From positions 1-47,477 of the forward strand of contig JAUVNS010000024.1 of assembly GCA_030599585.1 (NCBI GenBank): a DNA stretch of 47,477 nucleotides, given 5' to 3'. The notes beneath the pieces were generated by a model that worked only from the letters and a program-made list of their open reading frames with translations, was not told where the DNA came from and searched no databases. Positions 327-43,186 of the stretch are shown here, one piece after another (position 1 is the first letter of the stretch; each line of letters begins with the position of its first letter). A program made the position numbers and the translations under genes. Source of the DNA: Promethearchaeota archaeon. Its GTDB lineage: Archaea; Asgardarchaeota; Lokiarchaeia; Sigyniarchaeales; SOKP01.

Positions 327-1385
327 ATGGCAGAGAAAATATTGAAAAAAGACGACATTGGTAAGCTCTATAGCGAGCTAGTAAAAGACTACAAATTTTA
401 CGCTCCTACTAAAGTAAAAGGTAATATTGCTTTCAAAAAGATTTCTAAAGCGGAAGAAATCGAATTAGACTACTTGAATTCGAAGGTTCCTCCGAAAGAA
501 GTATTATTTCCACAAAAAGAAACTATTTTTGAGTATAGATACGAAGGGAAAGACGTAATTATTGATGAAAGGAAAGACTTGGAAGACAAAATTCTAATTT
601 TTGGAGTCAGACCTTGCGATGCTTACAGTTTTAAGCTGTTAAAAGACTTTTTTGCGTTTGGCGACTTTCAGGACGATGTTTTTCTGAAAAAGCGAGAAAA
701 TGCGACGATCATTGGTATTGGTTGTAATAGTCCGAGGCAATCGTGCTTCTGTACGTCTGTAGGTGGTCATCCTTTTCAAAAAGAAAGCACCGACATATTT
801 CTTTCAGATTTAGGAGATACTTATTTAGTTGAGGCCATAAGCGAAAAAGGAGAGAACCTCTTGAAAAAGTTATCATGGCTTGCTGACGCTAAAAAAGCAG
901 ATGTAGAAAAATCTAAAGAGTTAGCTAAGCAAGCAGAAGAATCTTTTACTACTAAATTTGATTTTGATTTAGTAACAAAAGTATTAGACGAAAACTTCGA
1001 GCATCCTGTCTGGCAAGAAATTAGCGAAAGTTGTATCGGATGCAGTTCGTGCACGTTTCTATGCCCTACTTGTACTTGTTTTGATGTTATCGACGAAAAC
1101 GACGAATACAATAACCGGGGTCGACGAATTAGGATTTGGGACACTTGTCAGTCGTGTCTTTATACGCTCGAAACGAGCGGTCATAACCCTCGGCCAGCTA
1201 AAATACAAAGGTGTAGAAATCGAATTATGCACAAGTTTAGCTATTATCCCTCGAATTACGATTGTTTAGGGTGTGTGGGGTGCGGAAGATGTATTACCGC
1301 TTGCCCCGTTAATAACGAGCTCAGATTAATAATTGATAAAATACTTGAAATTCAAGAAAAAAGTGGTGAAAAAGTCAGTGCCTAA
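327..1385 (+). CDS. 4Fe-4S dicluster protein, AsrA / sulfhydrogenase beta / FlxB-like
   Basis: GVRPCD and CFCTS motifs; CIGCSSCTFLCPTCTCF and CVGCGRCITACP clusters. Confidence 0.85.
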   Translation: MAEKILKKDDIGKLYSELVKDYKFYAPTKVKGNIAFKKISKAEEIELDYLNSKVPPKEVLFPQKETIFEYRYEGKDVIIDERKDLEDKILIFGVRPCDAYSFKLLKDFFAFGDFQDDVFLKKRENATIIGIGCNSPRQSCFCTSVGGHPFQKESTDIFLSDLGDTYLVEAISEKGENLLKKLSWLADAKKADVEKSKELAKQAEESFTTKFDFDLVTKVLDENFEHPVWQEISESCIGCSSCTFLCPTCTCFDVIDENDEYNNRGRRIRIWDTCQSCLYTLETSGHNPRPAKIQRCRNRIMHKFSYYPSNYDCLGCVGCGRCITACPVNNELRLIIDKILEIQEKSGEKVSA

Positions 1386-2217
1386 TCCGTATATTCCAAT
1401 GTTGACGAAAGTGAAATCTATAATTTCGGAAAATGAAGTACGAGATATAAAAACTCTCGAGTTAGAATTTCAAAAGGAGGAAGAATATAAAGCCTTCGAT
1501 TATATTCCTGGTCAATTTGCAGAAATTAGTATTATTGGTAAAGGAGAATGTCCTATTGGAATTGCTTCTTCCCCTACTGAAGAGGGTACGATCAAATTCA
1601 CGATCAAAAAAATGGGAACCGTGACTTCTTCTTTTCACAACAGTGATATTGGAGACACGATTGGTGTGAGAGGACCTTTAGGAAACGGCTGGCCGATGGA
1701 AGAACTAAAAGGACAGAACATAGTTGTCATTGGAGGGGGGTTTGCGTTTTCCACGCTAAGATCGCTCGTGTTGTACGTATTAGATGATAAACACCGAAAA
1801 GATTACGGTGATATAACGGTAATTTATGGAAACAGAGATTCAGGTGAAGTTCTCTATCGAGATGTTCTTGAAGAATGGGAAAAGCGAGACGATATTAATG
1901 TAGTTTTGACTATAGATCGCGAAGAAAAAGGCTGGACTCGAAAAGTAGGTTTTGTCGCTGCTATAGTTAAGGAAGTAGCACCTTCCCCAGATAATGCAGT
2001 CGCAATTATTTGCGGACCTCCAATTATGATAAGAACTGCTGTAGATGAGTTAGTAAAGATCGGTTGGAAAGACGAGAAGATTCTTAATTCTTTAGAAATG
2101 CGAATGAAATGTGGAATTGGGAAATGTGGGAGATGTAATATCGGTGAGAAATTTGTGTGCATCGATGGTCCTGTTTTTTCACTCGCAGAGCTTAAAAAAA
2201 TGCCTAATGAATATTAG
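1378..2217 (+). CDS. FAD/NAD(P)-binding 2Fe-2S oxidoreductase, AsrB / sulfhydrogenase gamma / FlxA-like
   Basis: PGQF, RGPLGNGW, GGG, ICGPPIM and MKCGIGKCGRC...CIDGPVF motifs; start placed at GTG 1378 (GGTGA upstream, overlaps the previous stop) rather than 1333. Confidence 0.88.
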   Translation: MPNPYIPMLTKVKSIISENEVRDIKTLELEFQKEEEYKAFDYIPGQFAEISIIGKGECPIGIASSPTEEGTIKFTIKKMGTVTSSFHNSDIGDTIGVRGPLGNGWPMEELKGQNIVVIGGGFAFSTLRSLVLYVLDDKHRKDYGDITVIYGNRDSGEVLYRDVLEEWEKRDDINVVLTIDREEKGWTRKVGFVAAIVKEVAPSPDNAVAIICGPPIMIRTAVDELVKIGWKDEKILNSLEMRMKCGIGKCGRCNIGEKFVCIDGPVFSLAELKKMPNEY

Positions 2218-12533: not shown

Positions 12534-13382
12534 TTGAACGATCTCGTATTGTTATGTTTATTATTTTTTATTTTTGTTAGAGTTATAGGATTAGGAGTTT
12601 CAATTGATTTTTTGTACGATACAAAAAACAAAAAATTTATCAGTTTTATATTAAGTTGGAGTTTCTGGATTCTTGTCGCACTATTTCCTATTTTTTCTAG
12701 TATTGTGGAATCCACTAATTTACAAGAACTTTTTTTGGTTCTAAATGTATTATTTTCCTTACTAGCAACTATTTTTTATATATGGGGATTTTTAAAGTAT
12801 TTTATGTCCGTGCCTTCTAAAATCATGATATCATTGATAACTCTTTTAGTGGTAACGATTTTTTTCTTGTATTTCATTATCGACTACGCTATCTCAATAC
12901 AATTTACTAGATTTATGTTATTAATTGTGACGGTAAGTTTGTATGTTATACCTCCTTTGAAAAAACGAAATTTTAAAATGTATGTGGGAAAGAGTATTAG
13001 ATGGTATATTGTTGTTATTTCAGCATTTTTTATTTATTTCCCCATATCATTTATAATTTCTTTCCAAGGATATAGTTATGGATTGTACGATGCTGAGAAT
13101 TCTCTCCTAATTATGCTTAATTATGTGCCTACTATCAGTACTTCCATATTATCCATTATTTTACTTGTACATCTCGAATATTCGATATCTTCTCGGGAGT
13201 CTTTTGATTTAAAGGATAAGTATTCTCATAATTTAGGAAATATACTGCAGGTTGTTAATAGTTCCTCAGATTTGATAAAAATGAGTGCTAATTTAAATGA
13301 ACAAGAGACAACAAATTTAAAATTAATACAAGCAAAATGCAAAGAAGCTTCAAAATTAATAAAACATATAAGAAAACTGTAA
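12534..13382 (+). CDS. 7TM membrane sensor ending in a HisKA-like helix pair, without an ATPase domain
   Basis: About 7 TM segments, then DKYSHNLGNILQ (H-box-like); stop about 50 residues later; next to a response regulator. Confidence 0.7.
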   Translation: MNDLVLLCLLFFIFVRVIGLGVSIDFLYDTKNKKFISFILSWSFWILVALFPIFSSIVESTNLQELFLVLNVLFSLLATIFYIWGFLKYFMSVPSKIMISLITLLVVTIFFLYFIIDYAISIQFTRFMLLIVTVSLYVIPPLKKRNFKMYVGKSIRWYIVVISAFFIYFPISFIISFQGYSYGLYDAENSLLIMLNYVPTISTSILSIILLVHLEYSISSRESFDLKDKYSHNLGNILQVVNSSSDLIKMSANLNEQETTNLKLIQAKCKEASKLIKHIRKL

Positions 13383-13402
13383 ACTTTTTTTAAACAGGGG
13401 GT

Positions 13403-13768
13403 GTGATCAAAATAGCTAAAGTCTTCATAGTCGATGATGATGTAAATATCGTTTTCCTTTTTGAACAATTTTTAGTGGTAGAAGGACATGAAATTGTAGC
13501 AAAAGCATTTAATGGGGAAGAAGCAATCGAAATCTTTAAAAATTTTCAGGTAAAACCGGATCTTGTTCTTATGGATCAAAGGATGCCTACAAAAAATGGT
13601 ATAGAAACTACAAAGGAAATACTAAGCATGAATCCTGAAACTAAGATAATTTTCATTAGTGCGGATTATTCTATAAAAAATGAAGCTTTCGAGATTGGCG
13701 CTATTGATTTTATAGAGAAGCCTATTGATTTGTCTACCTTATCTGCGATAATTAACAAACACGTATAA
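13403..13768 (+). CDS. Stand-alone response regulator receiver (CheY-like)
   Basis: IVDDD, LMDQRMP..NG, ISA, FIEKP. Confidence 0.92.
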   Translation: MIKIAKVFIVDDDVNIVFLFEQFLVVEGHEIVAKAFNGEEAIEIFKNFQVKPDLVLMDQRMPTKNGIETTKEILSMNPETKIIFISADYSIKNEAFEIGAIDFIEKPIDLSTLSAIINKHV

Positions 13769-13878: not shown

Positions 13879-15369
13879 TTAAGGATCATTACGGAGAGGG
13901 TGGCGTGCGTTTTCAGCATTTTTAATACCATCTGCTACGGTAGGTAATCCTTCAATAGCCTTTCTAATTGCATTTCGAGTTGCTTTATAATTATTAATAA
14001 ATACTCTTTTTCTCGCACTCGCAGAAGGATGAACAAATACATTTACAATGATGACAATATCATCCAAAATTGCTTCCGGAATGATTCCATCCTCAATACA
14101 TTGCATTACAGCCTTTGCAACTGCCGCTTGAGCTGGACCGTAGGTTAAGCCTGCATGGCGCAGGGAAGTAACCTTAACTGTAGGTATCATAATTGTTGGG
14201 GGTTTTATTTGCATATTTGGTTCGAGAATAACCTGAAGTCCCTCTTTTCCTTTTGCAGGATGAGTTAAGGCTCGAGCATATGCTTCTCCGACCGGTCCAT
14301 TTTTATCACCAATAAGTAAATCTATATGAGCGAGCTCAACACGAGAACCAACTAAAGATTCTCCAACTTTTAAACTAAAATCAGTTATTTTTTGAGGTGT
14401 TACGCCCACTGCGTAAAAGCGACTTGTTAGTTCTTTCTCACCAATTTCGAATTTAATCTCTTTCTTTTCGATATATCCTAACTTTTCTAGTTCAACTCTA
14501 AATTCGTCTTGAAGTTCGTACGATAAAGCATCTCCAAGAATGATAGGTCGTCTTGTCGTGCCTACTGGAACTCCCGTCATATTCAAACACTCTTTAACGC
14601 CTAAGGCGCCAGAATTGATTAACATGCGAGCCAACTTTTGAACTTTCTTTTGTAGAGTTTGAGCTTCTTTTAGCCGATTATTTTTCACGTGATCGTAAAT
14701 TTCAAGCCACACCTTTGGAATAACATTAGCAGAACCAAGTATACAACCTGCAGCGCCACCTGCTAAAGAACCTAACACATTTTCGTCCCACCCAATCAAA
14801 ACAGAGATTTTATCGCTTACTTTTTCAAGTAACGCAGAAAAATACTTGTAATCACCGCTGGAATCTTTTATTGCGACAAAATTTTCGATATCAACAAGAT
14901 CTTCTACAACTGTCCAAGGCAATTCTACACCGGTGCAAACTGGAATGTTATACAACACTAACGGAATATCAGTTTTTTCAGCAATCGTGAAGTAGTGATC
15001 GTATAACCCCTTTGCTTTAGGTTTTAAATAGTATGGTGTAACTATTATACAGGCGTCAGCCCCAATATCTGTTGCGGCCTTGGTAGCGTCTATAACCAGT
15101 TTTGTACCGGTCTCCCCTGTTCCCGCAATTACTGGCACTCTTCCATTCGTTTCGTCAACTACGATTTCTATAACCCTCAATCGTTCCTCAAACGTCATAT
15201 TGACGAACTCTCCAGTTGTTCCTACCGGGACGAGCCCCGTAACTCCTTGGTCTATGAGATGGTTTACTAAATTTCTAAGGTTTTCTTCGTTAATTGATTC
15301 GTCATCTTTATTGAAAGGAGTTACTAATGCTGGCATAACTCCTGTTGGTCTAAAATCAAATTTACCCAT
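13879..15369 (-). CDS. fae: Fusion of a DapA/DHDPS-family class I aldolase (N-terminal) and formaldehyde-activating enzyme Fae (C-terminal, ~13879-14370)
   Basis: N-terminal half: PALVTPF, GTTGE, PYY, LYNIP, AIKDSSGD. C-terminal half: VGESLVG...LAHIDLLIG.K.GPVG.A, GPAQAAVAKAV, VFVHP, NYKAT..AI, HP. Confidence 0.92.
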   Translation of the reverse strand: MGKFDFRPTGVMPALVTPFNKDDESINEENLRNLVNHLIDQGVTGLVPVGTTGEFVNMTFEERLRVIEIVVDETNGRVPVIAGTGETGTKLVIDATKAATDIGADACIIVTPYYLKPKAKGLYDHYFTIAEKTDIPLVLYNIPVCTGVELPWTVVEDLVDIENFVAIKDSSGDYKYFSALLEKVSDKISVLIGWDENVLGSLAGGAAGCILGSANVIPKVWLEIYDHVKNNRLKEAQTLQKKVQKLARMLINSGALGVKECLNMTGVPVGTTRRPIILGDALSYELQDEFRVELEKLGYIEKKEIKFEIGEKELTSRFYAVGVTPQKITDFSLKVGESLVGSRVELAHIDLLIGDKNGPVGEAYARALTHPAKGKEGLQVILEPNMQIKPPTIMIPTVKVTSLRHAGLTYGPAQAAVAKAVMQCIEDGIIPEAILDDIVIIVNVFVHPSASARKRVFINNYKATRNAIRKAIEGLPTVADGIKNAENARHPLRNDP

Positions 15370-15388
15370 TTATATTATCCTCTATTTT

Positions 15389-16675
15389 TTATTCTTTATG
15401 ATGTAAATTTTTAGCAGCTATGAATGTCAGTCCTTTTTTGGTTAGAGCTTCAGCTGTAGTATTAACAGCTTCGTATCGGTCGAGAAGATTTACGCGTAAT
15501 GCTTCCCATATTCCCGCTTCTTCAATATCTTTCTTAGTCATGAAATATTCAAGGATATCTGTAGGATGTTCCCGTTTTTCGTCAACATCAACATTTGCTC
15601 CCTCATGTTTCGCACTTACATTCTTCACTTTCGTAGCTAATTCCATTAATTCATCTCGACGATCATAAGGTTGCCTTACAATGCTTTTCCACGTTTCAGT
15701 TATATGGTGCTCTATTCGTACTACATCTTCGAATCCAAACGGTTTTCTTATATAGGCAGTTACTTCAATAGTTTCATTATTGACTGAATTTGCTAAGTTA
15801 AAACCGATCAAAGGACTTGTACCATCTTCCCGGGCAAATAATTTAGCAGTTAATAAAGTCCAAAGACAAGAATAAGGGTTATCATTGCCCATATATACGC
15901 TAATTTTAAATTCGTTGTTGATACCAAGTTTATGGATAAAATATCCTAATAAAACAGTGCCAGGATTCACGTTAAGAACTTGTTTAATGCCGTAGTTAGT
16001 GTAATAGTAAAGAAACTCGTCAATCCATTTCAACGCAAAATCATTTGGTTGTCCAACGCCGCCAAAATACCCTGTAATTGTATCAGGGCCTCCAAGATGT
16101 ATGTTTACAGGCATACCATCTGGCCCAGGTGCTGTTCCTTTTGTATCAAGAGTCTCAACCCATGTTGAACCTATAATTTGCATTGCTGCTGCCATAGCTA
16201 ATAAATCCCCGTCTTCTTCCTGTTCTTTCATGTATCTTACGCGAATAATTCTACCAGGTACTATCTTTTGATTTTCAACGGCGTCTCTTACCATATCCAT
16301 CAAAAAAGGAAAGTATTGACACGCAGAAAGTTCTAATGTTATAGCAAAGTCTTCGTCGAAAGTCATTTCAGACGCTTTATCGCCTAAAATCTTTTTTCGA
16401 TAATCTGCTATGCTAATAAAAGAATTTTTGTCGCGTTGAGTAATCAACCACTCAATATCCTTAACATATTCTGGTTTCTTCTTTTTTAACTTTTCGAGTA
16501 AATTTTCTACTTTACTGGCTTCTTCTGCCTTTCGATTGATCTCTTCTACTCCACCATATTTATCTACTATATTTAAAAGATCGCTTATCAGTGGATTTTT
16601 TTCGTCCAATAAGAAATCGTTTATTACTTGTAATGCGCTATCTGGAATTTTCAATTTTTTTCTCAAATCGTTCAT
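15389..16675 (-). CDS. Hypothetical protein (428 aa), first gene of the aldolase-Fae operon
   Basis: Long ORF with enzyme-like motifs (VETLDTKG, NIHLGGPDTITGYFGGVGQPN, FKISVYMGNDN, EHHITET, SAKHEG); 19-bp gap to the next gene. Confidence 0.85.
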   Translation of the reverse strand: MNDLRKKLKIPDSALQVINDFLLDEKNPLISDLLNIVDKYGGVEEINRKAEEASKVENLLEKLKKKKPEYVKDIEWLITQRDKNSFISIADYRKKILGDKASEMTFDEDFAITLELSACQYFPFLMDMVRDAVENQKIVPGRIIRVRYMKEQEEDGDLLAMAAAMQIIGSTWVETLDTKGTAPGPDGMPVNIHLGGPDTITGYFGGVGQPNDFALKWIDEFLYYYTNYGIKQVLNVNPGTVLLGYFIHKLGINNEFKISVYMGNDNPYSCLWTLLTAKLFAREDGTSPLIGFNLANSVNNETIEVTAYIRKPFGFEDVVRIEHHITETWKSIVRQPYDRRDELMELATKVKNVSAKHEGANVDVDEKREHPTDILEYFMTKKDIEEAGIWEALRVNLLDRYEAVNTTAEALTKKGLTFIAAKNLHHKE

Positions 16676-21115: not shown

Positions 21116-22000
21116 TCATTTAGTTCTAAGCATTTGATCAACCCAACAATTATAGTAATTAGATGTCAGTATAATATGTGGAATTATATCTTTGAATCCT
21201 TCAGTTTGTAGTTTTTCTTGAATTTTCTGGGAGTCTTGAGTAGATTTTGACCATGTGTGCATTTGAATAAAGTTAGGAATATTACTAAAGCTTATACAAA
21301 AAGCAATATTTTGAGGATAATTCTCATATATATGTTGTATTGTTGAATTTATACTAGTTCCTTCTTTCAAATATAGATGAAAAGCTGTACTTACATTATT
21401 CTCTGCAATAGGGGCCCATTCCATAGTAAATATAGCTAAATTATTCTCAATCATTCGATCTAATCGTTTTCTAACTGTTTTAGCAGAAATTCCTACATCA
21501 AAAGCAATATCAGTTATAGGTTTCCTTGAATCTCTATTAAGAGTCTTTAATATTTTGAAATCAATACTTGTTAGCGGTTCTGGTGAAATTAAGTAAGGAG
21601 TATTTATAATCCCAATAGTAGGCTCACTAATCTGGGCCTTTTCTGAGACATAAGTACTAAAATCTTGGAGCTCTGATATATCTCTTAAAAAACCAGTGAT
21701 GTAGAAAAATTTGCCCCCTGCGATTGCAATTGTAAAAATACTTTCATGTTGACCTAACTCTTTACTTATAGCATCCATCGATTTTGTATTGGAATTACCG
21801 GAAATTACAACTACTAGATACTTTAATGCAATAATACTCGGTCGTGCTATAAAAGCATTGATAATCCCCTCGTCTACAAGACTTTTTATACGTTTATGTA
21901 TTGCGCTCACTGACATATTCGTCATTTCTGCTAATTCTCTATATGTCAAGCGAGAGTTATTTAATAATTTTTTTAAGAGTGTTAAGTCAATTTCATCCAT
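21116..22000 (-). CDS. Double-domain Lrp/AsnC transcriptional regulator R1
   Basis: Two AsnC HTH units (MDEIDL.LL..L..NSRLTYRELA; LTSIDFKILKTLNRDSRKPITDIA.DVGISAKTVRKRL), each followed by a RAM-like region. Confidence 0.9.
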   Translation of the reverse strand: MDEIDLTLLKKLLNNSRLTYRELAEMTNMSVSAIHKRIKSLVDEGIINAFIARPSIIALKYLVVVISGNSNTKSMDAISKELGQHESIFTIAIAGGKFFYITGFLRDISELQDFSTYVSEKAQISEPTIGIINTPYLISPEPLTSIDFKILKTLNRDSRKPITDIAFDVGISAKTVRKRLDRMIENNLAIFTMEWAPIAENNVSTAFHLYLKEGTSINSTIQHIYENYPQNIAFCISFSNIPNFIQMHTWSKSTQDSQKIQEKLQTEGFKDIIPHIILTSNYYNCWVDQMLRTK

Positions 22001-22133
22001 AATACTTACTTAAATAGTAATTATTTAATAATAATTCTAGGGCTAACTAATATTAATTTTTATATTATTAATTTATCATCCAACTAAGATTAGAAAAAAG
22101 GGAAAAAAATAAAAAATTAGGATTAATCCTATT

Positions 22134-22604
22134 TTATTTTTCACCAATGATATATCCAATAATATTATTAGAATACTCTTTAACTATATCATATACTCTA
22201 TTCTCTAATGCTAATTCTCCTTTATTTAGCTTTAAATAAAGTATTGGCGGATAGATTATTTCGGTCTTTACATTATCGTGGAGAATTTCAACCCATAATG
22301 GTTCGACTTTAATATTGGCTGTTGCAATGTAAAAACCGGATATAGCTTTAAGGGTGATTTTTTTCTTTTTAGATAATTCCCAATACTTAAGTAGCCAATT
22401 TTGAATTTCCAAACTAGGGATTGCATCGCTTATATTGTCTCCGATGATCAAATAATCTAACCTTTCTTCAATTAAGAAAGCCGGTTCAATCTTTTTAGCA
22501 TTTCCTACAGAAACATCAATGTAATCATCCAACCGATCCTGTAACATCTCAGCAATTAACTTTGAGAATCCAATTCCTTCCTTATAAATTATCCATAATT
22601 TCAG
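22134..22604 (-). CDS. Degenerate flavodoxin-like protein, probable CTG start
   Basis: Frame extends upstream of 22547 as KLWIIYKEGIGFSKLIAEML; the first codon after the in-frame stop is CTG (22604), 6 nt after GGTGA. Confidence 0.6.
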   Translation of the reverse strand: MKLWIIYKEGIGFSKLIAEMLQDRLDDYIDVSVGNAKKIEPAFLIEERLDYLIIGDNISDAIPSLEIQNWLLKYWELSKKKKITLKAISGFYIATANIKVEPLWVEILHDNVKTEIIYPPILYLKLNKGELALENRVYDIVKEYSNNIIGYIIGEK

Positions 22605-22682
22605 TTAATTTCACCAGTAGAATTCATTTACTTTGATTTTGTTTATAATTTTATTTGTAAATAATAATAAAAAAAAATTGAT

Positions 22683-23645
22683 CTAAATATGATCTAAAGT
22701 TATTACTACTTGTCCCTTTTTCTGCCCTGTTTCGATATACCTGTGAGCTTCAGATATCTGTTCCAACGGATAGCGTTTATCTATGACCGCCTTTAATTTT
22801 CCAGCTTCAATAAGTTCTTTAAGATAAATTAAATCTTCAGCTCTTCCTTCTAAGAGTCCACTTACTGCTTTCTTGTTACTAAATACTCGAAAAGCCCGTC
22901 CCAACCCAAAGGTCGTAAAAACATAGAATCCCTCTTCCGTCAGCATTCTTTTGCTAGCTGAAAACGGGCTTTTGCCTATCGTATCAAAAATAATGTCATA
23001 CTTCTCGTCGCTTTTGGTAAAATCCTCTTTAGTATAATCAATTACTTTATCGGCTCCAAGAGACCTCACTAATTCTAATTTTGGGGTGCTGCATACTCCA
23101 GTTATTTTTGCCCCAAAGTACTTGGCAAGCTGAACTCCAAAAGTCCCTACCCCTCCCGACGCGCCAAAGATGAGAACTTTTTGACCGCTCTGGATCTTAC
23201 CCATTCTTAAGAAATACAATGCGGTTAATCCCCCATAAGGAATGGCAGCGGCTTCTTCATATGTCATATTAGCTGGTTTTATTGCTACAGACCCATCTTC
23301 AGGCATACATACGTATTCAGCATTAGCTCCCAAATTCATCCCAGTGAATCCAAAAACTTGGTCACCCTTCTTGAATAGATTTACATCTTTACCTACGGAT
23401 TCAATTTCCCCAGCTAATTCAGTCCCAAGTATTGGTTTCTTTGGTTTTCTGAGCCCAGACGATAATTTTATTAATAATCCAAATCCAGGAGGACCTGTGC
23501 AAGCTCTCCCCCAACAGTCGTATAATGTTGCTGTCGTCGCATATACTCTTATCAGCACTTCATTGTCCTTAGGAGTTGGTTTTTCTACCTCCTTGACCTG
23601 AAGAACCTCAGGAGGTCCGTATTTTGAGTATACAGCCGCTTTCAT
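22683..23645 (-). CDS. NAD(P)-dependent MDR-family oxidoreductase, paralog 2 (possible ATT start at 23702)
   Basis: [32 protein letters not shown]; paralog of 2881-3840. Confidence 0.9.
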
Positions 23646-23736
23646 GTAATTTTCATGTCGAGAATCAGCAAAATCTTCTTTTTTTATTATATCTTGTGTA
23701 ATTTCTTATCACCTTTTTTTTATTTTTATTTTTTAA

Positions 23737-24375
23737 CTATTTAATATCTCGAACCATTAACCACATTGGTAAATTCAATGGTTCTGGAAGAATTATTTTT
23801 TTCTTAACAGAAAATCCATACTTTTCGTAGAGACTAACATTCTCTTCTTTTTGAGTCTCCAAATAAATAGGTTTTCTTTCTGTTTCAGCATTTTCTATAA
23901 GTGCTCTTAATAATTTTCCTCCAAAACCTTTTCCTTGAAATTCTTGTGAAACACCCATTATTAATAGATGTATATATGGGCCTAAATTAAGACTTTTCTT
24001 CGCTTCTTCAACTGCATTACTGAGTACATTCATAATTTTTGCTTCGTTTGCTATTTTCATAGAAAGAAAAAAAGCACCACTTCGAATAACTCTCAATGTT
24101 GTCATATCTTTATCATGAGGTGCAATTGCCATTACTCCTTCTAACTTATCAGATGTCGAGAAGACATTACCATATTTCAAACAAAATCTAACCATAACTT
24201 CAGTTAGTACACGATTCTTATCTTTATCTTCAAATACTTCATTCCACATTGATTCTTCAGAAAATGCATTAGTGAGTACATTTACTGCGTTCTTACGATC
24301 TTTTTTTTGTATTTTATATAATCCACTAATTAATGACATATTTTCAGGTGGAACCATTTTGTTTTTTATAACCAA
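23737..24375 (-). CDS. GNAT N-acetyltransferase, paralog 2 (alternative start 24339)
   Basis: VSQEFQGKGFGG, YLETQ...NV.LYEKYGF; close paralog of 3962-4567. Confidence 0.88.
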   Translation of the reverse strand: MVIKNKMVPPENMSLISGLYKIQKKDRKNAVNVLTNAFSEESMWNEVFEDKDKNRVLTEVMVRFCLKYGNVFSTSDKLEGVMAIAPHDKDMTTLRVIRSGAFFLSMKIANEAKIMNVLSNAVEEAKKSLNLGPYIHLLIMGVSQEFQGKGFGGKLLRALIENAETERKPIYLETQKEENVSLYEKYGFSVKKKIILPEPLNLPMWLMVRDIK

Positions 24376-24414
24376 ATTTTTTACACTTTTTTTTTATTTT
24401 TTTTTTATTAATTT

Positions 24415-24646
24415 TAATACAGATTGGGGCTCTAATAACAGCATGTTCACTACTATGGAAAAAAACTAACAATAAGGGCTTTTAGTCATTAAATAGAAGG
24501 AACGGTAATTTTCCATCTAAATAATAAGAGTATAAAATATAAAAAAAGAACAAAATATCAATAAAATCCGCATTTTTCTTCTCAAATGAATATATTGTGG
24601 AACGAAAAGTACCACAATATTTTCCATTTAGTTGAAATTTGGGAAT
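24415..24646. repeat. ~232-bp conserved non-coding element, copy 1
   Basis: About 93% identical (manual alignment) to 27851-28082; contains the inverted repeat ATATTGTGG-N11-CCACAATAT (24592-24620). Confidence 0.92.
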
Positions 24647-24664
24647 AGAATTTCAATTACTATA

Positions 24665-25549
24665 TCATTTAGTTCTAAGCAATTGATCAATCCAACAGTC
24701 GTAGAAATCACTCGATAATGCAATATATGTGATAATATCTTTGAATCCTTCAGTTTGCAGTTCTTTTTGAATTTCATGGGATTCTTGAGTAGATTTTGTC
24801 CACGTGAACATAATAATTAAGTTAGGTATATTACTAAAACTTAGACAAGCAATAACATTTTGATTGTATTTCTCATATATATGTTGTATTGTTGAGTTTA
24901 TATCAGTGCCCTCTTTCAGATGAACGTGAAATGCTGTAGTAAGATTATTTGCCGCTTTTTCAGACCAGTCAATAATAAAATCAACGAGGTTATTCTCAAT
25001 CATACGAGTTAATCGTTTTCTAACGGTTTTAGCAGAAAGTCCAACATCTTCTGCGATATCTGTTACAGGTTTCCTTGCATCTCTATTAAGAGACTTCAAT
25101 ATTTTATAATCTATAGTAGTTAGTGGTTCTGGGGTTGTGATATATGGTACACTTACAATTCCTACATTAGGTTCACTAATTTGAGCTGTTTTAGACACAT
25201 AAATACTCAACTCTTGAAGTTCTGATATATCCCTTAAAAAGGCTGAGATAGTAAGATGTTTTGCTCCAGCTATACCAACAAAATTAATATTCTCATGTTG
25301 CCCTAGTTCTTTACTTAGTAAATCCATTGATTTTGCTTCAGAAGTGCCAAAAATCAAAACTGAAAGGTACTTCAATGCAATCGCACTTGGTCGGGCAATA
25401 AAAGCATTAATAATCTCATCGTCTACAAGTTTTTTTACACGCTTATGTATAGCACTAATTGACATATTCGTCATATCTGCTAATTCTCTATATGTTAAGC
25501 GAGAGTTTTCGAATAGTTTTCTCAGAAGGAAAAAGTCAGTTTCATCCAT
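24665..25549 (-). CDS. Double-domain Lrp/AsnC transcriptional regulator R2
   Basis: Two AsnC HTH units; paralog of R1 and R3. Confidence 0.9.
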   Translation of the reverse strand: MDETDFFLLRKLFENSRLTYRELADMTNMSISAIHKRVKKLVDDEIINAFIARPSAIALKYLSVLIFGTSEAKSMDLLSKELGQHENINFVGIAGAKHLTISAFLRDISELQELSIYVSKTAQISEPNVGIVSVPYITTPEPLTTIDYKILKSLNRDARKPVTDIAEDVGLSAKTVRKRLTRMIENNLVDFIIDWSEKAANNLTTAFHVHLKEGTDINSTIQHIYEKYNQNVIACLSFSNIPNLIIMFTWTKSTQESHEIQKELQTEGFKDIITYIALSSDFYDCWIDQLLRTK

Positions 25550-25692
25550 AAATCTTACAAAGAATAATGTCTAATAAAAAATATGAAAATAATTTAAGAA
25601 ACACTTTAATCAATACAAGATATTTCATGTAATATAAGTATATCTCTCTATAAAGAAGAAAATAAAAAAAAAAATAGAAATTTATTATTTAC

Positions 25693-25947
25693 TTATTCTT
25701 TTCCTCGAATTAATTTAACCACAAAAATTACGAGAAAAATAGCTCCGATTGTGACACATATAACAGGAATCGCTTGAGAAACAAGCCCGGTAATCAAGCC
25801 TTCAGCTGTGCTAATAGAATCTAAAAAATCCTGCCAACTTAAAATAGAAGGATTAGTCCATCCTAATAGCGGTGGTAATACAAACATTGTAATTATAAAA
25901 ATTACAACCAACATTATTCCGATAATAAATGTTGTCCATTTTTTCAT
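25693..25947 (-). CDS. 84-aa two-TM membrane protein, copy a
   Basis: 70/84 identical to 29986-30240; AGGT upstream. Confidence 0.85.
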   Translation of the reverse strand: MKKWTTFIIGIMLVVIFIITMFVLPPLLGWTNPSILSWQDFLDSISTAEGLITGLVSQAIPVICVTIGAIFLVIFVVKLIRGKE

Positions 25948-26029
25948 TCATATCTACCTATTAATTTATAAGTTTTTCCAATATTTAATTTTAAATTAAG
26001 ATTTTTCATTAAAAAAAAAAAAGGTTTTT

Positions 26030-26776
26030 TTACGCTTTTCCAAACCTATTGAATACTACTGTTCCTATAATTACAATAACTATACTATAAACAGCTAAGA
26101 CTCCTAAATTAATCCAAATAGTTATTTCTGTCAATGGAACACCATTAAAGATCATTTGTATTGAATTAGTAGAATAATAGATTGGAAAAAATATTCCTAT
26201 TACTTGTGTAGCTTCTGACATTGGGATCCAAGTACCTAAAAGCATTTGTGGCATGAAAAATATCATTGATACTCCCACAGCAGCTCCAGAGCTTTTTGCG
26301 AACGTTGCAGAGATAAGACCAAAACCAACAGAGGATAGTGCTAGGAATCCTACAAACGCAAATGCTAATAAAAAGCCCGAAGACCTAATACGAAAGCCTA
26401 GTATTAAAGCTAACACCGTTATAATTGCTACTTGTAAGAGAGATATTAGTATATTAGCGATTACATGACTTCCCATAAATTCTCCGGATGTTGTAGGTGT
26501 GGTATTCATTCTGTCGAGTAATCCATCTTTTCGGTAGTCAGTAAACGCCATAGCAACAGTCATGACGATATATACACACGTAAACCCATATATCCCAGGT
26601 ATCATGAAATCAAAAATACTGACTCCAGGGGTGGAGGTGGGAGTATCTGACAAAGCTAACCCAAATGTTAGAGTTAATATTATAGGCAATAATATCAAAG
26701 AGAAAAGATAAGTTGGATCTCGTATCAATTTTTTAAGTTCCAATTTTAACAATGCCATAGTTCTTTGTAAATTCAT
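26030..26776 (-). CDS. ABC-2 type exporter permease
   Basis: Six TM segments, DFMIPGI, G.LDRM.TTP, follows an ABC ATPase. Confidence 0.9.
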   Translation of the reverse strand: MNLQRTMALLKLELKKLIRDPTYLFSLILLPIILTLTFGLALSDTPTSTPGVSIFDFMIPGIYGFTCVYIVMTVAMAFTDYRKDGLLDRMNTTPTTSGEFMGSHVIANILISLLQVAIITVLALILGFRIRSSGFLLAFAFVGFLALSSVGFGLISATFAKSSGAAVGVSMIFFMPQMLLGTWIPMSEATQVIGIFFPIYYSTNSIQMIFNGVPLTEITIWINLGVLAVYSIVIVIIGTVVFNRFGKA

Positions 26777-26778
26777 TT

Positions 26779-27564
26779 TTAAAGCCCCTCCGTAATTCTT
26801 CTACCTGTAATTTTTAAAAATACTTTCTCTAAATCCTCTACATTATGTTTTTCCATTAATCCTTTAGGAGTTCCTAAATCGATCAACTCACCAAAATCAA
26901 TAATGGCAACGTGATCACTAAGAGCTTCTGCTTCCTCGATATAATGGGTGGTCAAAACTACTGTTTTTCCTTTCTCCTTGAGAGAAGCGATAAATTCCCA
27001 AGTTTTTCGACGTACTCGTGCATCCATGCCCACTGTAGGTTCGTCAAGAAATAATATATCTGGGTCACCAATTAAGGCCATCAGCATATTAATCTGACGC
27101 AGCATTCCACCGCTATATTTCTTTGCTTTTCGCTTGCTTTGTTCGGTAAAATCTACTGCTTCTAGAAGCTCATCAATACGCTCTTTTAACACCTTTTTAT
27201 CTATTGCATAGAGATTTCCATAAAGCTCAATATTTTCTCGTCCTGAAAGAAACTTATAGATAGCTGCTTGTTGGGGGCAAACACCAATCAATTCTTTGAT
27301 CTTATTAAGATCCTTCCTTACATTATAGCCCCCCACATAAATTTCACCGCTTGTAGGTTTTAATAGACCTATCATCATTTTAATAGTTGTAGTCTTCCCC
27401 GCACCATTTGGTCCTAAGAGACCAAAAATTTCACCTTTATTTATTTTAAATGAAAGATCGTTAACAGCCTTTACATCATCGAAATGCTTTTTTAAATTTT
27501 GAATCTCAATTACTGTATTATTAGAACTTCCTTTTCTCAGATCAGATTCTTCTGAAATTGTCAT
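26779..27564 (-). CDS. ABC exporter ATP-binding subunit (DrrA-like)
   Basis: GPNGAGKTT, YSGGM, LFLDEPT, TTHY. Confidence 0.94.
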   Translation of the reverse strand: MTISEESDLRKGSSNNTVIEIQNLKKHFDDVKAVNDLSFKINKGEIFGLLGPNGAGKTTTIKMMIGLLKPTSGEIYVGGYNVRKDLNKIKELIGVCPQQAAIYKFLSGRENIELYGNLYAIDKKVLKERIDELLEAVDFTEQSKRKAKKYSGGMLRQINMLMALIGDPDILFLDEPTVGMDARVRRKTWEFIASLKEKGKTVVLTTHYIEEAEALSDHVAIIDFGELIDLGTPKGLMEKHNVEDLEKVFLKITGRRITEGL

Positions 27565-27581
27565 TTTTTCATTCCTCCTAT

Positions 27582-27794
27582 TTAACTTTTTTTTGTTTTA
27601 TTTATCTTGTACCAAAGTAGTCCATAATTTAACGCTGGACCCGCAATAGTAATTGCAATTGCAGTAATAAAGAGCGCTAAGTTTGGAGCGTTTACCCAAT
27701 AAACAAGCCACATAATTATCAGTGCGACGATCCAAATCCCCATAATTACCCAGTTAATCTCTTTGTACGTTGGAGTTTTTTTTACTTCACTCAT
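27582..27794 (-). CDS. 70-aa two-TM membrane protein
   Basis: MSEVKKTPTY... with two hydrophobic helices; start placed at ATG 27794 because the track's longer start lies inside the repeat element. Confidence 0.7.
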   Translation of the reverse strand: MSEVKKTPTYKEINWVIMGIWIVALIIMWLVYWVNAPNLALFITAIAITIAGPALNYGLLWYKINKTKKS

Positions 27795-27850
27795 TTTTAT
27801 TCTCACTTTAAGTTTTATTTTTTTTTTGTAATTTTTTTTTTTGTTAATCA

Positions 27851-28082
27851 TAATACTGATCGGGGCTCTTATAACAGCATGTTCACTACTATGGAAAAAA
27901 ATTAACAATGGGGTTTTATAGTCATTAAATAAAAAGAAAGGTAATTATCCATCTAAATAATAAGAGCATAAAATAAAAAAAAAGAACAAAATATCAATAA
28001 TATCCGCATTTTTCTTCTCTAATGAATATATTGTGGAACGAAAAGTACCACAATATTTTCCATTTAGTTGAAATTTGGGAAT
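27851..28082. repeat. ~232-bp conserved non-coding element, copy 2
   Basis: Direct repeat of 24415-24646; inverted repeat at 28028-28056 identical to copy 1. Confidence 0.92.
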
Positions 28083-28087
28083 GGATT

Positions 28088-28975
28088 TTAGGATTTTGTT
28101 CTAAGTAATTGGTCGACCCAACAATCATAATACTTTGCAGAAAGATAAATATGTGGAATTACATCCTTGAATCCTTCGGTTTGCAGGTCTTCCTGAATTT
28201 TTTGGGTCCCTTTAGAAGATTTTGTCCATACATGCATTGATAAAAAGTTTGGAATATTACTATAGCTTTGGCAATAAGCAGTATTCTGGGAATGTTTCTG
28301 ATTAAGATACTGAATTGTTGAATTAATATCGGTTCCTTCTTTTAAATTAATATGAAAAACTGTATTAAAATTATTTTCTGATAACGGAGCCCATTCAATG
28401 GTAAATCTGGCTAACTTGTTCTCGATCATTCGATCTAATCGCCTTTTAACAGTTTTTGCGGAGATCCCTACATCATCTGCAATATCTGTTATAGGCTTCC
28501 TTGAATCTCGATTTAGAGCTTTTAAAATCTTATAATCAATAGTTGTGAGTGGTTCTGGGGTTGTCACATAGGGAACATTTATAATTCCTATTGTTGGCTC
28601 ACTAATCTGACCCGTTCTTGAGACATAACTACTAAAGTCTTGAAGCTCTGATATATTCCTTATGTAAGCGGGAATAATGAGGTATTTTCCTCCGGCTATA
28701 GCAATAACATAAATATTCTCATGCTGTCCTAGTTCTTTGCTCACTGCATCCATTGATCTTGCATTAGAAGTGCCCCAAATCGCAACCCATAGAAATTTTA
28801 ATGCTAAAACACTTGGTCTTGCAATAAAAGCAAGGATATCCTCATTGTCTACAAGATTCTTTACGCGTTTATGTATACCGCTGACAGTCATGTTGGTAAT
28901 TTCCGATAATTCCCTATATGTCAAGCGAGAGTTTTCTCTTAGTTTTCTAATAAGGATTAAGTCAATTTCATCCAT
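28088..28975 (-). CDS. Double-domain Lrp/AsnC transcriptional regulator R3
   Basis: Start MDEIDLIL at 28975 by alignment with R1 and R2; two HTH units. Confidence 0.9.
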   Translation of the reverse strand: MDEIDLILIRKLRENSRLTYRELSEITNMTVSGIHKRVKNLVDNEDILAFIARPSVLALKFLWVAIWGTSNARSMDAVSKELGQHENIYVIAIAGGKYLIIPAYIRNISELQDFSSYVSRTGQISEPTIGIINVPYVTTPEPLTTIDYKILKALNRDSRKPITDIADDVGISAKTVKRRLDRMIENKLARFTIEWAPLSENNFNTVFHINLKEGTDINSTIQYLNQKHSQNTAYCQSYSNIPNFLSMHVWTKSSKGTQKIQEDLQTEGFKDVIPHIYLSAKYYDCWVDQLLRTKS

Positions 28976-29178
28976 ATTTCTAACTAGAAATTCATTTATT
29001 CTAATAATTATAATGTTCTCTTCAGATATTATAAATGTTTTAGTGATATTATAGAAAAATCCTAGTAAAGAAGCGGAAAAAAATGCAATACTCACTGAAG
29101 TTAAAGAATCTTTTGACAAGATAGAATAAAAGAAAAGAAAAAAAAAACTAAACATTAAGAAGAGGGTTAATACATTAG

Positions 29179-29865
29179 CTATGGGATGATGAGTGAATAA
29201 AATATTAACCATCCTCCGATGATTAGTTCAAATAGAATCGCCACCAGACCACCGATAGAAAACAAGATTTTAAAGATTTTGGAGTCTTTAACATTAGGTT
29301 TTACAAATTTTATCCCATTACCGAAGCCAACGAAAATACTGGCAACAATTCCTAACCATCCAATAAATTGGGGAAGCGTTCCCACATAAGTAACTAACAC
29401 GATTGAAAATGCGAGTGTACCAATGGACCAAAAGATCATTGCAAAATCGAATCTAGAGCTTTTTGTTTTGGTAATTGTACGAGCTAAATCACTCAACGAA
29501 GTTCTTTCAGCACCATTAGTACCAGAATATTTTCTTGCTATGTTGAGAAGACCCCCGTAGTTTTTATCATTATAGCTAAGGATCAAGCCTTCTCCTATTC
29601 GAAAGATGGTCCAAACAATTCCAAGTATTATGTTATATTGACTAAAAACAATAAACAACATTATAGTAAGCGTAATGACGATTACATTATGTATGAGCGC
29701 TAACCCGATACCTATTTGAAATTTTTTTGGATCATCGTTAATCTGTTGTAGCTCAGCGTCTGAATTACCTATTTCTGCTTTATATCCTAATGCCGGTAGC
29801 AATATCAAATATAAAACTATAATCAACAGAAAGAGAAAACCAGCTACCCTCATTTCGATACTCAA
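29179..29865 (-). CDS. DUF4386-like membrane protein, paralog a
   Basis: R.AG.LFL N-terminus, R..E helix, P.FIGWLG, FELIIGGWL C-terminus; paralog of 32165-32818. Confidence 0.75.
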   Translation of the reverse strand: MSIEMRVAGFLFLLIIVLYLILLPALGYKAEIGNSDAELQQINDDPKKFQIGIGLALIHNVIVITLTIMLFIVFSQYNIILGIVWTIFRIGEGLILSYNDKNYGGLLNIARKYSGTNGAERTSLSDLARTITKTKSSRFDFAMIFWSIGTLAFSIVLVTYVGTLPQFIGWLGIVASIFVGFGNGIKFVKPNVKDSKIFKILFSIGGLVAILFELIIGGWLIFYSLIIP

Positions 29866-29915
29866 AGGGAATCCTCCAATTTATTCTTCATTTTTTTTTT
29901 AATATCTTGTGTAAT
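29862..29915 (-). pseudogene. 17-codon head-to-tail remnant of an internally deleted MDR oxidoreductase gene
   Basis: 5' end matches the MDR2 upstream sequence (GTGATAA-AAATTACACAAGATAT); 3' end matches the MDR4 terminus (GGATTCC-TTTGA overlapping the TTG of the DUF4386-like gene). Confidence 0.6.
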
Positions 29916-29985
29916 TTTTTATCACTTTTAGTTAAAAATTTTTTATTATTTAGAATTTAAAATAAAAATATAATTTATGAGGTGT

Positions 29986-30240
29986 TTATTCTTTACCTCG
30001 AATTAATTTTATCACAAAAATTGTAAGATAAATAGCTCCGATTGTAACACATATAATCGGAATCAACTGAGAAATGATACCAATAATCAAGCCTTCTGCC
30101 GTGCTAATAGAATCTAAAAAATCTTGCCAGCTTGCAATAGCGGGCATAGTCCAGCCTAATAGCGGAGGTATTACAAACATTGTGATTATAAAAATAACAA
30201 CCAGAATTATTCCAATAATGAATGCTGTCCATTTTTTCAT
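29986..30240 (-). CDS. 84-aa two-TM membrane protein, copy b
   Basis: Paralog of 25693-25947; AGGAG upstream. Confidence 0.85.
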   Translation of the reverse strand: MKKWTAFIIGIILVVIFIITMFVIPPLLGWTMPAIASWQDFLDSISTAEGLIIGIISQLIPIICVTIGAIYLTIFVIKLIRGKE

Positions 30241-30428
30241 ACAAATCTACTCCTTTAATTTTTTCATTTGATTTTTTTCACATCCATTTTTACATGATAT
30301 TTGGATTAATTTAATTAAAACATATGAGCTTTTAAAAAAAGACGTAATTTTTGCGTAAATATTTTTAAATTAAAAAAAAATTAAAAAATTGAATAAAAAA
30401 ATATTAAAAAAAAAATGGTTAAAAAAAA

Positions 30429-31052
30429 ATGATGAATAAAAATTTTTTTCGTGTTACTGGAATAGCAAATATAGTTTCTGCTGTATGTTTGTTATTATTT
30501 TGGTTTTTATATGCAATTTTGTTACCTATAAACGAAGTTCCTACAAATTATCATTTATTGATTCTTGATCCTGATTGGCTTCTTGTAAATGGTTTAGGAG
30601 TTATTGGATTTGTTTTAGCATTAGTCGGAATTTTAGGGATATTCTTCAAACAGTTTAATAATCTTACAGCGTTGGGAATGTTTGGTTTCTTGATAACTGT
30701 TGTAGGACAAGTATTATATAATGCGGGGATATATTACGAAACATTTATTTGGCCGATTCTTGCAGAAAGTGATCCTAGCCTAGTTACTTTATCTAGTGGA
30801 CCTATTTATTCTAATCCCGTCTTTTTCATGATGCAAATGTTGGCAGGTAGTATTTATGCTATAGGATTTCTAATTTTTGGAATATCAACTTATAAGACTA
30901 AATCTTTTTCTAAATGGACTATTCTTCTTCTCGTAATTGGAGTAGTTTTGTTTATTCCCGGTTTTTTTCCCTACTTAGTACGGACTGTGGGAATTGTTGC
31001 GTATGCGATAGGATTAATTTGGGTTGGATATACGCTAATTAAACAAGAATAG
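30429..31052 (+). CDS. Integral membrane protein (about 6 TM; possibly a distant DUF4386 relative)
   Basis: Hydrophobic segments; divergently transcribed within the array. Confidence 0.75.
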   Translation: MMNKNFFRVTGIANIVSAVCLLLFWFLYAILLPINEVPTNYHLLILDPDWLLVNGLGVIGFVLALVGILGIFFKQFNNLTALGMFGFLITVVGQVLYNAGIYYETFIWPILAESDPSLVTLSSGPIYSNPVFFMMQMLAGSIYAIGFLIFGISTYKTKSFSKWTILLLVIGVVLFIPGFFPYLVRTVGIVAYAIGLIWVGYTLIKQE

Positions 31053-31190
31053 AATCGTATTTAAAATAAAACTTTTTTTTTTATTTGTTCAAAAATTTTA
31101 CGAACAACCATAGTCTTCAACAATTACCGATCCAAAGGTAAGACTGAAATAATAATTAAAGATAAAAAAAAATTGCTTTCATACGCTTTG

Positions 31191-32120
31191 TTAGGTTTTG
31201 TTATTATGTTCCACAGTTATTACTACATTTCCTTTTTTGTGCCCTTTGTCAACATATCTATGAGCTTCTACGATCTGTTCCAACGGATAGGTTCTATCTA
31301 TGGCCGATTTTAGCTTTTCCGCTTCAACAAGCTCTTTGAGGTAAATTAAATCTTCAGTCTTTTCGCCGCCTACCCTATCATGAACTGACATGAATGTTCC
31401 CTTCGGAGTTAGTGCTTTCTTACGATTCGGTTTCGAGATTTTAGCAACGGCATCAAAAATGACATCGTAAAGCTCTCCTCTTTCTGTAAAATTCTCTTTA
31501 GTGTAATCAATTACTTTATCGGCTCCCAGAGATTTGACCAATTCTAAATTTGTGGTACTACAAACTCCGGTCACTTCTGCCCCAAAGTACTTAGCAAGCT
31601 GTACCGCAAACGTACCTACGCTTCCAGAAGCACCGTAGATAAGAACTTTTTGTCCGTTCTGGATATTAGCTTTTCTCATAAACTTCAATGCCATTACTGC
31701 CCCAGTAGAAAGTCCAGCTGCGGCCTCCTCAAAAGTCATATTTACCGGCTTTATTACTACTATTCCGTTTTCAGGCAGACATTTGTACTCAGCATAAGCA
31801 CCATAACCTACCCCGAAGGTAGACGCAAAAATGTGGTCACCTTTCTTAAATAGTGTAACATCCTTGCCAACGGCTTCAATTTCCCCGGCTAACTCCATTC
31901 CTAGTATAGGTTTTTTTGGTTTTTTGAAACCAAGAGCTATTCCTGCGATGAGCCTCATCCCACGAGGAACATCAAAACTTCGCATTCTAGTGTCACCCCG
32001 ATGTACTGTTGTCGCATATACTTTTACCAGAATTTCATTGTCTTTGGGAGTAGGTTTTTCTACCTCTTTGAGCTGAAGAACTTCCGGCGGTCCGTATTTT
32101 TCATATACAATCGCTTTCAT
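31191..32120 (-). CDS. NAD(P)-dependent MDR-family oxidoreductase, paralog 3
   Basis: [37 protein letters not shown]. Confidence 0.9.
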
Positions 32121-32164
32121 AATATTTTTTATCTCCGTTCTTTAAAAAATTTTATTTATTTAAT

Positions 32165-33768: not shown

Positions 33769-33886
33769 AATAAGCCCTATTAGAATACATTCCATATAAA
33801 TTGATGTCTGGGTTAAGAATGATAATTCTTTTCCATTCTTTTCACTATTTTTTAAAATTGAACTGAAAAAAGTTATCTATCTAAAT

Positions 33887-37243: not shown

Positions 37244-37244
37244 G

Positions 37245-40914: not shown

Positions 40915-40927
40915 CTGAGTGATTAAA

Positions 40928-42253: not shown

Positions 42254-42256
42254 AGC

Positions 42257-43066: not shown

Positions 43067-43186
43067 TACTTAATTCTTTTTTCACATAATTTTTACTCAT
43101 TTTAAATAATAAAGCTTCAATATTATGAAATCAATATTTTATTAAGAAACCCTAATTTTCCTCCCGAGAAAGAATAGGATCGAAAC

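Follow-up and report, generated by a model that had tools for sequence, protein, structure and literature searches.

A DapA-Fae fusion of Asgard archaea and Anaerolineae that probably transfers hydroxymethyl groups in an unrecognised C1-C4 pathway

The window analysed here is the whole 47,477-nucleotide (nt) stretch of contig JAUVNS010000024.1 (assembly GCA_030599585.1), from a Promethearchaeota archaeon of the Lokiarchaeia. Its reverse strand carries a single unbroken open reading frame (ORF) that joins a barrel of the DapA family to a domain of formaldehyde-activating enzyme (Fae), and an uncharacterised gene, termed X, lies beside it (Table 1). Pfam placed the DHDPS family at residues 8-277 of the product (E 1e-76) and Fae at residues 335-492, covering positions 1-158 of the 159-position profile (E 5e-54); the NCBIfam Fae model TIGR03126 scored 183 bits against a cut-off of 118. 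The fusion is undescribed in the literature available to us and is probably a hydroxymethyl-transfer enzyme of an unrecognised pathway that connects one-carbon (C1) and C4 metabolism.

Table 1. Features of the fusion locus, in window coordinates (aa, amino acids).
Feature	Position	Strand	Basis
Fusion gene, 496 aa: DapA/NAL-family Schiff-base barrel, linker, Fae domain	13879..15369	-	ORF, Pfam, NCBIfam, homologues, model
Barrel, residues ~1-300	14470..15369	-	Residue alignment and structural matches
Linker, residues ~301-333, low-confidence predicted beta hairpin	14371..14469	-	AlphaFold model
Fae domain, residues ~334-496	13882..14370	-	Alignment and model against 1y5y
Partner gene X, 428 aa, TIM barrel	15389..16675	-	Structure comparison, conserved neighbour
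X-fusion gap, 19 nt, GAGGA ribosome-binding-like site	15370..15388	-	Sequence

The source genome is G000 of the genome sample (in the labels used here, G denotes genomes, L loci, P proteins and f Asgard families). Its contamination is 8.9%, and despite this the fusion locus is syntenic with those of relatives. The best 120 homologues were drawn from four sources, in which they carry the DapA name, and came mostly from metagenome-assembled genomes (MAGs) of Promethearchaeota (Loki); all had the DHDPS+Fae architecture, at 481-505 aa and 84-93% identity. A further search of GTDB found 75 fusion loci. An assembly artefact, which an earlier sequence-only reading of this DNA had allowed for, is ruled out by these homologues and loci, and the union of a DapA barrel with a complete Fae domain, which that reading had reported, is a real gene. 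It was present in 125 of 251 Asgard genomes and in 39 of the 151 genomes taken from the class to which G251 belongs, given in its record as Anaerolineae, the two samples used throughout; contigs of Bathyarchaeia type and of Korarchaeota/Thermoproteota carry it too. Loki and several other lineages have a single fusion gene with a complete Fae domain, and two tandem paralogues occur in family f8 (Thorarchaeia, by P0245), in Anaerolineae and in others.

The barrel retains the Schiff-base set of its family, namely GTTGE at residues 50-54 (with Thr52 and Thr53), Tyr114, Tyr140 and Lys168, and the full catalytic set is kept in nearly all members. The GTTGE, Tyr and Lys motifs picked out in the sequence-only reading were therefore located, as was its Fae histidine, at His348. 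By alignment, DHDPS Arg138 is replaced by Cys145 and Asn248 by Gly254. The exchange of Arg for Cys, also noted earlier, held in 119 of the 120 close homologues; the wider fusion family often has Val or Leu, and it is the loss of the Arg that is common to all. The barrel also contains a NAL-like Gly193-Trp-Asp-Glu196 stretch and Ser213. Among 50 diverse members Glu196 was invariant and Asp195 and Ser213 were near-invariant, and we take these three residues to resemble the polyol pocket of NAL. The best structural match of the barrel model was HOGA (3s5n; Z 39.5, root-mean-square deviation (rmsd) 1.6, 291 aligned residues, 28% identity), with DHDPS, YagE and NAL entries close behind at Z 38.0-37.1.

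The fusion is labelled DapA in databases because it passes the TIGR00674 (DHDPS) cut-off (238 against 206 bits), and its best sequence matches in the PDB are likewise DHDPS entries. Taken at face value, the label would make it a DHDPS paralogue serving lysine synthesis with an appended Fae domain, which is scarcely credible: because Arg138 and Asn248 are replaced, the fusion barrels form a clade of their own, and a canonical Arg-type dapA stands beside dapB on contig C9 of the source genome, together with lysA- and dapF-like genes, the barrel is probably not DHDPS. The fusion is also present in G239 and G023, in which profile searches found no aspartokinase over the cut-off and no Asd. The sequence-only reading, which had denied a role in lysine synthesis and pointed to a separate dapA as a check, is upheld on both counts. 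The fusion also fell below the curated cut-offs for NAL (184 against 281 bits), KDG aldolase (110 against 390), HpaI (189 against 397) and KdgD (120 against 278). In a tree of 129 barrels the fusion barrels formed one clade of 71 rows with a Shimodaira-Hasegawa-like approximate likelihood-ratio (SH-aLRT) support of 99, from which the DapA of the source genome was excluded; one member of the clade, P0252, is a stand-alone barrel. The tree was built in quick mode with a midpoint root, SH-aLRT support and no bootstrap, and because it held no characterised references it shows the monophyly of the fusion barrels and not the nearest function.

Alignment of the Fae domain to 1y5y, the Fae of Methylobacterium extorquens, placed His348, Asp350 and Gln414 at His22, Asp24 and Gln88, which we take to be functional positions, and the C-terminal His-Pro is also kept. 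The model of the domain matched 1y5y with Z 22.8 and rmsd 1.6 over 158 aligned residues. In the AlphaFold model of the entire fusion (mean predicted local distance difference test score (pLDDT) 83.7) the two domains are joined by a poorly ordered linker, with pLDDT below 50 at residues 305-309 and 313-327. The positions of Fae Lys71 and Thr73, presumably pterin contacts, read Thr397 and Lys399 in the fusion; the Lys71 position is kept in f28 members.

The tandem paralogues have divided the Fae site between them, a form that, like the partner gene X, lay outside the sequence-only reading. In type A the Glu-Pro-Asn loop and Gly-Pro-x-Gln remain, and the His/Asp strand and C-terminal tail are gone; type B has kept the His, the Asp and the tail, as well as Thr73, and lost the other face of the site. 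Between its two members, each A/B pair has preserved a single full Fae catalytic face and no more. When the A and B Fae domains were modelled together, the model scored 0.88 against 0.17 for the best control, on a scale where 58 of 80 solved complexes attain the mark, as do 2 of 110 mismatched pairs; its runs agreed in at least 87% of contacts, the partner pLDDT was at least 85, and the model joins exactly the two faces that A and B retain. The pass may be memorisation by the predictor, because the solved Fae pentamer has the same interface. The symmetries of the parts disagree, a two-fold barrel standing against a five-fold Fae ring, and a pentamer leaves no room for strict alternation of A and B. 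The residue pattern points independently to a Fae-type site under selection, and the pairs show neatly how duplicated genes can share out a single active site. One such pair, in G252 (L153:8544-11449), has RibD_C upstream and MtnA- and class II aldolase-like genes downstream.

Gene X was found in 72 of 76 loci, directly upstream of the fusion in all but two, and in the home family the two genes were present or missing together except in three genomes with partial or contig-end matches. The X-fusion junction was bridged by two RNA-library contigs from relatives, weakly, as these were contigs only and a small share. X had no match in Pfam, NCBIfam, PDB sequences or Atlas features. Its predicted structure is a TIM barrel, and the nearest predicted structures were U32-like clusters of ~316 aa (TM 0.74 by row, rmsd 2.9). 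The family of these clusters, Y, is the TIM-barrel partner that stands beside the fusion where X is missing. X and Y are linked by the shape search alone, the profile comparison being weak (hhalign E 0.005, probability 7%), and the 4Fe-4S Cys set of U32 was not found in either, X having one near-invariant Cys (C119) and Y no invariant Cys. Y was present in all eight genomes of fusion-bearing Asgard families without X, against 0 of 69 others. Of the 39 fusion carriers in the Anaerolineae sample, 36 have X (7) or a close Y orthologue (29), and the two co-occur in one genome only. Other neighbours of X are an amino-acid dehydrogenase, Ldh_2, Fhs, MTHFR and a pterin-binding methyltransferase. X has at least 8000 homologues and Y more than 4000, and the fusion offers a handle on two large unannotated barrel families.

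Homologues of both partners were also observed in other settings. An X homologue (52%) lies on a Polaromonas plasmid (L108:14986-16257) near a Cys/Met pyridoxal-phosphate enzyme, an Ldh-family enzyme, an FAD oxidoreductase and an Arg-type DapA. In Thor-type loci (L140, L142-L145), X is near a threonine-synthase-like enzyme fused to a PadR-type helix-turn-helix and near an energy-coupling factor (ECF) S component. A divergent DapA-family barrel of 348 aa, without Fae, lies directly upstream of X at L137:7778-10107 (G213) and L138:7085-9417 (G089) and is possibly a fourth module; both genomes are without Mch, and G213 is also without Fae. The distant Y relatives at L242, L243, L245 and L246 (28-46%), an unannotated Cys-poor group of U32-like enzymes, are placed in sugar-acid operons (dehydratase, lactonase, ABC transporter), ahead of dmpF-dmpG, or within a biosynthetic cluster that includes a kinase and an aminotransferase. 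The sugar-acid operon contexts of Y on plasmids were set aside, because those relatives (39-46%) belong to a type found together with X.

The partners are also found with a different gene in the place of the fusion. X occurs in 38 of the 151 Anaerolineae-class genomes, and in 17 of these a PanB-family gene is its immediate neighbour. The fusion is missing from all 17, and a further 7 X carriers have the fusion, with no PanB next to X. A second PanB lies elsewhere in 12 of the 17 and is the higher-scoring one in nine (379-404 bits). PanB also stands beside Y in five of nine genomes with a close Y orthologue and no fusion. In the cases scored in this class, X or Y was thus paired with the fusion or with a PanB-like gene, never with both. 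PanB catalyses hydroxymethyl transfer between a 2-oxo acid and tetrahydrofolate (THF), and because its net reaction equals the combined result of an aldolase and Fae, the exchange supports hydroxymethyl transfer. Judged from its residues and gene pairings, the fusion is likely a 2-oxo-acid:pterin hydroxymethyltransferase acting on some 2-oxo acid. The sequence-only reading had suggested aldol chemistry coupled to formaldehyde capture, and the interchange with PanB beside the same partners argues for that coupling.

A further substitution was seen in Asgard families f6 and f23, in which X is present and both the fusion and Mch are absent. X there leads an operon of a class I aminotransferase, homoserine dehydrogenase (Hom) and aldehyde:ferredoxin oxidoreductase (AOR), at L136 (G211) and L129-L135. 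In metagenome loci, Hom and AOR fill in L217 the slot held by the fusion in L196 and L231. Profile searches of G211 (99% complete) found no aspartokinase over the cut-off and no Asd, so its Hom appears to lie outside the usual route, and the operon of G211 and L129-L135 is a candidate for a non-canonical homoserine-aspartate route. Hom and the fusion are anti-correlated, with 20 genomes having both, 105 the fusion only and 77 Hom only; in the home family, Hom was found in 12 of 38 fusion carriers against 14 of 16 non-carriers, and in neither count are the kin independent.

The keto acid of homoserine is 4-hydroxy-2-oxobutanoate (HOB), and HOB is favoured as the substrate because it is the one metabolite we could name that suits all three modules. 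The preferred reaction is HOB + H4-pterin = pyruvate + methylene-pterin, to which we assign a probability of about 0.5. HOB had already been named in the sequence-only reading; it is the most economical choice, with Hom, aminotransferase and AOR in the same slot, and the NAL-like Gly-x-Asp-Glu pocket is a point that may sit badly with it. That pocket, with its invariant Glu196 and near-invariant Asp195 and Ser213, suggests extra polar contacts, and the PanB interchange fixes the type of reaction and not its substrate. The same chemistry could therefore act on a larger enamine partner (2-oxobutanoate, 2-oxoisovalerate/ketopantoate, 2-oxoglutarate or a hydroxylated keto acid) to form a branched 3-hydroxymethyl-2-oxo acid, and G023, which has the fusion and is without panB, would fit this. 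We consider a larger substrate unlikely, albeit a serious contender, since the alternative of Hom, aminotransferase and AOR demands a homoserine-like amino acid. Ketopantoate is further opposed by the presence of both panB and the fusion in G000 and G239 and by the second PanB kept in 12 Anaerolineae-class genomes. Substitution of the fusion for panB in pantothenate synthesis is ruled out for the source genome by the same panB.

The existence of X-AOR operons without any pterin step raises a different arrangement, in which X (or Y) would be the true HOB aldolase and the fusion would mainly capture or oxidise formaldehyde, as AOR would in f6 and f23. The top Foldseek matches of X were indeed class II aldolases and transaldolases (E ~1e-4, TM 0.33), but these fold matches are unspecific (VIA Z 12, with unrelated barrels scoring equally), an aldolase X would make a PanB-like or DapA-like partner superfluous, and the catalytic set of the fusion barrel is complete in nearly all members. 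This arrangement is accordingly very improbable.

Under the preferred HOB reaction, the fusion would be a two-site protein. Lys168 of the barrel would form a Schiff base with the 2-oxo acid, and the barrel would break or make the C3-CH2OH bond (C3-C4 cleavage of HOB). The formaldehyde would be channelled to the His348 site between neighbouring Fae domains, where it would be condensed with a tetrahydropterin: tetrahydromethanopterin (H4MPT) or a related pterin in these archaea, and probably THF in most bacterial carriers. The fusion would then be one step of a two-gene module in which this keto acid would be produced or consumed by X, or by Y in its place. The best guess for X is that it works at C4 of a 4-substituted 2-oxobutanoate (the methionine keto acid, for example), by addition or by elimination; methionine gamma-lyase was considered as a complement of X, and with nothing over the cut-off and no pattern it neither supports nor refutes this guess. 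HOB would have three fates: pyruvate and methylene-H4MPT by the fusion, transfer to THF by the PanB-like gene, or transamination to homoserine, which the aminotransferase-Hom-AOR module would carry on through aspartate semialdehyde to aspartate.

Cleavage is somewhat favoured over synthesis because capture of formaldehyde by a pterin is exergonic and because the genomes with the fusion and without Hom are also without the Hom-linked threonine synthase. The preference is slight, and fixation of C1 into a C4 unit for a product other than threonine is only a little less probable. The fusion as a supplier of homoserine for threonine is unsupported, as those genomes, G040 excepted, also lack the Hom-linked ThrC.

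Mch was found in every fusion-bearing Asgard family tested, and since it co-occurs with the fusion there, H4MPT or a related pterin is the likely carrier in these archaea. G000 has Mch and FolD; in G023 Mch was present, and Fhs and FolD were not found. The sequence-only reading had tied the fusion to H4MPT, partly through fwd genes in the window. Such a cluster exists at 39806-43993 (+), with fwdG/D/B/C-like polyferredoxin, molybdopterin-binding, molybdopterin oxidoreductase, GXGXG and FdhD genes; a fwdA-sized gene was not found within it. Because the fwd-like genes (39806-43066) are ~24 kb from the fusion and are not among its conserved neighbours within 6 kb, they show only that the organism has the pathway. 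The tie to H4MPT is likely to hold for the Asgard carriers and is too narrow for the bacterial ones.

Several observations weigh against the HOB reaction as proposed. Mch is present in only 7 of the 39 bacterial fusion carriers, so H4MPT is not the general carrier; since Mch is mostly absent and the two bacterial carriers checked have Fhs and FolD, THF is probably the carrier in most of them. Most fusion members have Thr at the Fae Lys71 position, a change that may be linked to the difference in carrier. The NAL-like pocket exceeds the needs of bare formaldehyde and could mean a larger substrate. Barrels without the Schiff-base Lys, with Fae residues kept, occur in G252 (P0248, P0250) and a few other cases. 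A natural source or sink of HOB was not identified among the genes examined, and the co-occurrence counts overstate independence because the genomes are related and include incomplete MAGs.

Some of these points would suit a protein in which no formaldehyde passes between the domains, the barrel being a hydratase, dehydratase, deaminase or lyase of a longer keto acid and the Fae domain a pterin-binding, regulatory, oligomerisation or scavenging module. DapA-family folds span many reactions and the top structural matches are close in score; the Fae Lys71 and Thr73 are altered, the linker is poorly ordered in the model, both G252 barrels are without the Lys, and the source genome already has a Fae-Hps. 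Such a protein would, however, leave the mutual exclusion with PanB-like genes beside the same partners unexplained, and it is opposed by the exact conservation of one complete Fae catalytic face across the A/B pairs; we regard it as improbable. Returning to the HOB reaction, its broadest form would be a widespread natural HOB pathway in Asgard archaea, Bathyarchaeia and Anaerolineae, in which X or Y works with the aldolase-Fae fusion, a PanB paralogue or the aminotransferase-Hom-AOR module, a C4 amino-acid skeleton is linked to pterin-bound C1, and Fae serves both THF and H4MPT. This broadest form is tentative, with the odds slightly against it.

Other features of the loci were recorded. A CitG-family gene flanks the fusion in L111-L113, and H4MPT gene clusters contain CitG homologues; a gene that recurs downstream of the fusion was, where checked (L021), glucuronate isomerase. 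X is flanked by a four-subunit 2-oxoacid oxidoreductase operon in metagenome loci L195, L201-203, L213 and L218, and the window encodes a two-subunit 2-oxoacid:ferredoxin oxidoreductase at 36407-38906 (-). Convergent with the fusion, and not kept in related loci, is a pair at 12534-13768 (+) of a membrane protein with a kinase-like C-terminal tail and no Pfam match followed by a single-domain response regulator. A 4Fe-4S dicluster protein and an FAD/NAD-binding Fe-S subunit at 327-2217 (+) resemble sulfhydrogenase or AsrAB beta/gamma, and repeated paralogues at 21116-33795 (zinc-binding dehydrogenase family, AsnC-type regulators, GNAT) resemble a local duplication.

No published description of a DapA-Fae fusion was found in the literature searched, most subscription journals being outside its reach. 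Transfer of C1 from HOB to THF with release of pyruvate has been described as an engineered route (PMC8719824), HOB has been called a non-native metabolite and its aldol reaction engineered (PMC8879981), and the PanB of P. putida works in part as an HOB aldolase (bioRxiv 10.1101/2025.02.17.638773). If the proposal is true, nature uses an HOB route so far known only from engineered bacteria, and does so in some of the commonest anaerobic sediment microbes. Synthetic methylotrophy would gain an enzyme dedicated to pyruvate and formaldehyde that brings its own formaldehyde trap, and the DapA label, with its implication of lysine synthesis in genomes seemingly without it, would be corrected.

Among known systems, the fusion shares its barrel fold and pyruvate Schiff-base machinery with DHDPS, HOGA, NAL, KDG aldolase and YagE; it differs from DHDPS in the loss of Arg138 and Asn248, and the NAL, KDGA, HpaI and KdgD cut-offs were not reached. 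With the Fae of M. extorquens (1y5y/1y60) it has in common the fold, His22, Asp24, Gln88 and the C-terminal His-Pro, but it is fused, has Thr and Lys at Lys71 and Thr73 and includes split A/B lineages, and most of its bacterial carriers are without Mch. PanB (PF02548) would share its net reaction, in which a hydroxymethyl group passes between a 2-oxo acid and a tetrahydropterin, and in Anaerolineae-class genomes a PanB paralogue replaces the fusion beside X or Y; Pfam found no PF02548 domain in the fusion, so that the functional likeness comes from the gene exchange alone. PanB is a metal-enolate enzyme, whereas the fusion has a Schiff base and a Fae site and probably another substrate. DmpG/DmpF is an aldolase-dehydrogenase channel that traps a reactive aldehyde, and the likeness is in logic only: a 4-hydroxy-2-oxo-acid aldolase is tied to an enzyme that traps its aldehyde, but the aldolase is of class II, the reactants are acetaldehyde and CoA, and there are two chains. 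The Fae-Hps of methanogens (FaeB-HpsB, NF009833) likewise combines a formaldehyde-releasing aldol enzyme with Fae in one chain, and the Fae part of the Fae-Hps of the source genome (contig C34) is 43% identical to that of the fusion. NF009833 matches only the Fae part of the fusion, at 152 bits against a cut-off of 274, there being no C-terminal Hps domain; in place of the Hps partner the fusion has a class I Schiff-base barrel of the DapA family, and the order of the domains is reversed, with the barrel first.

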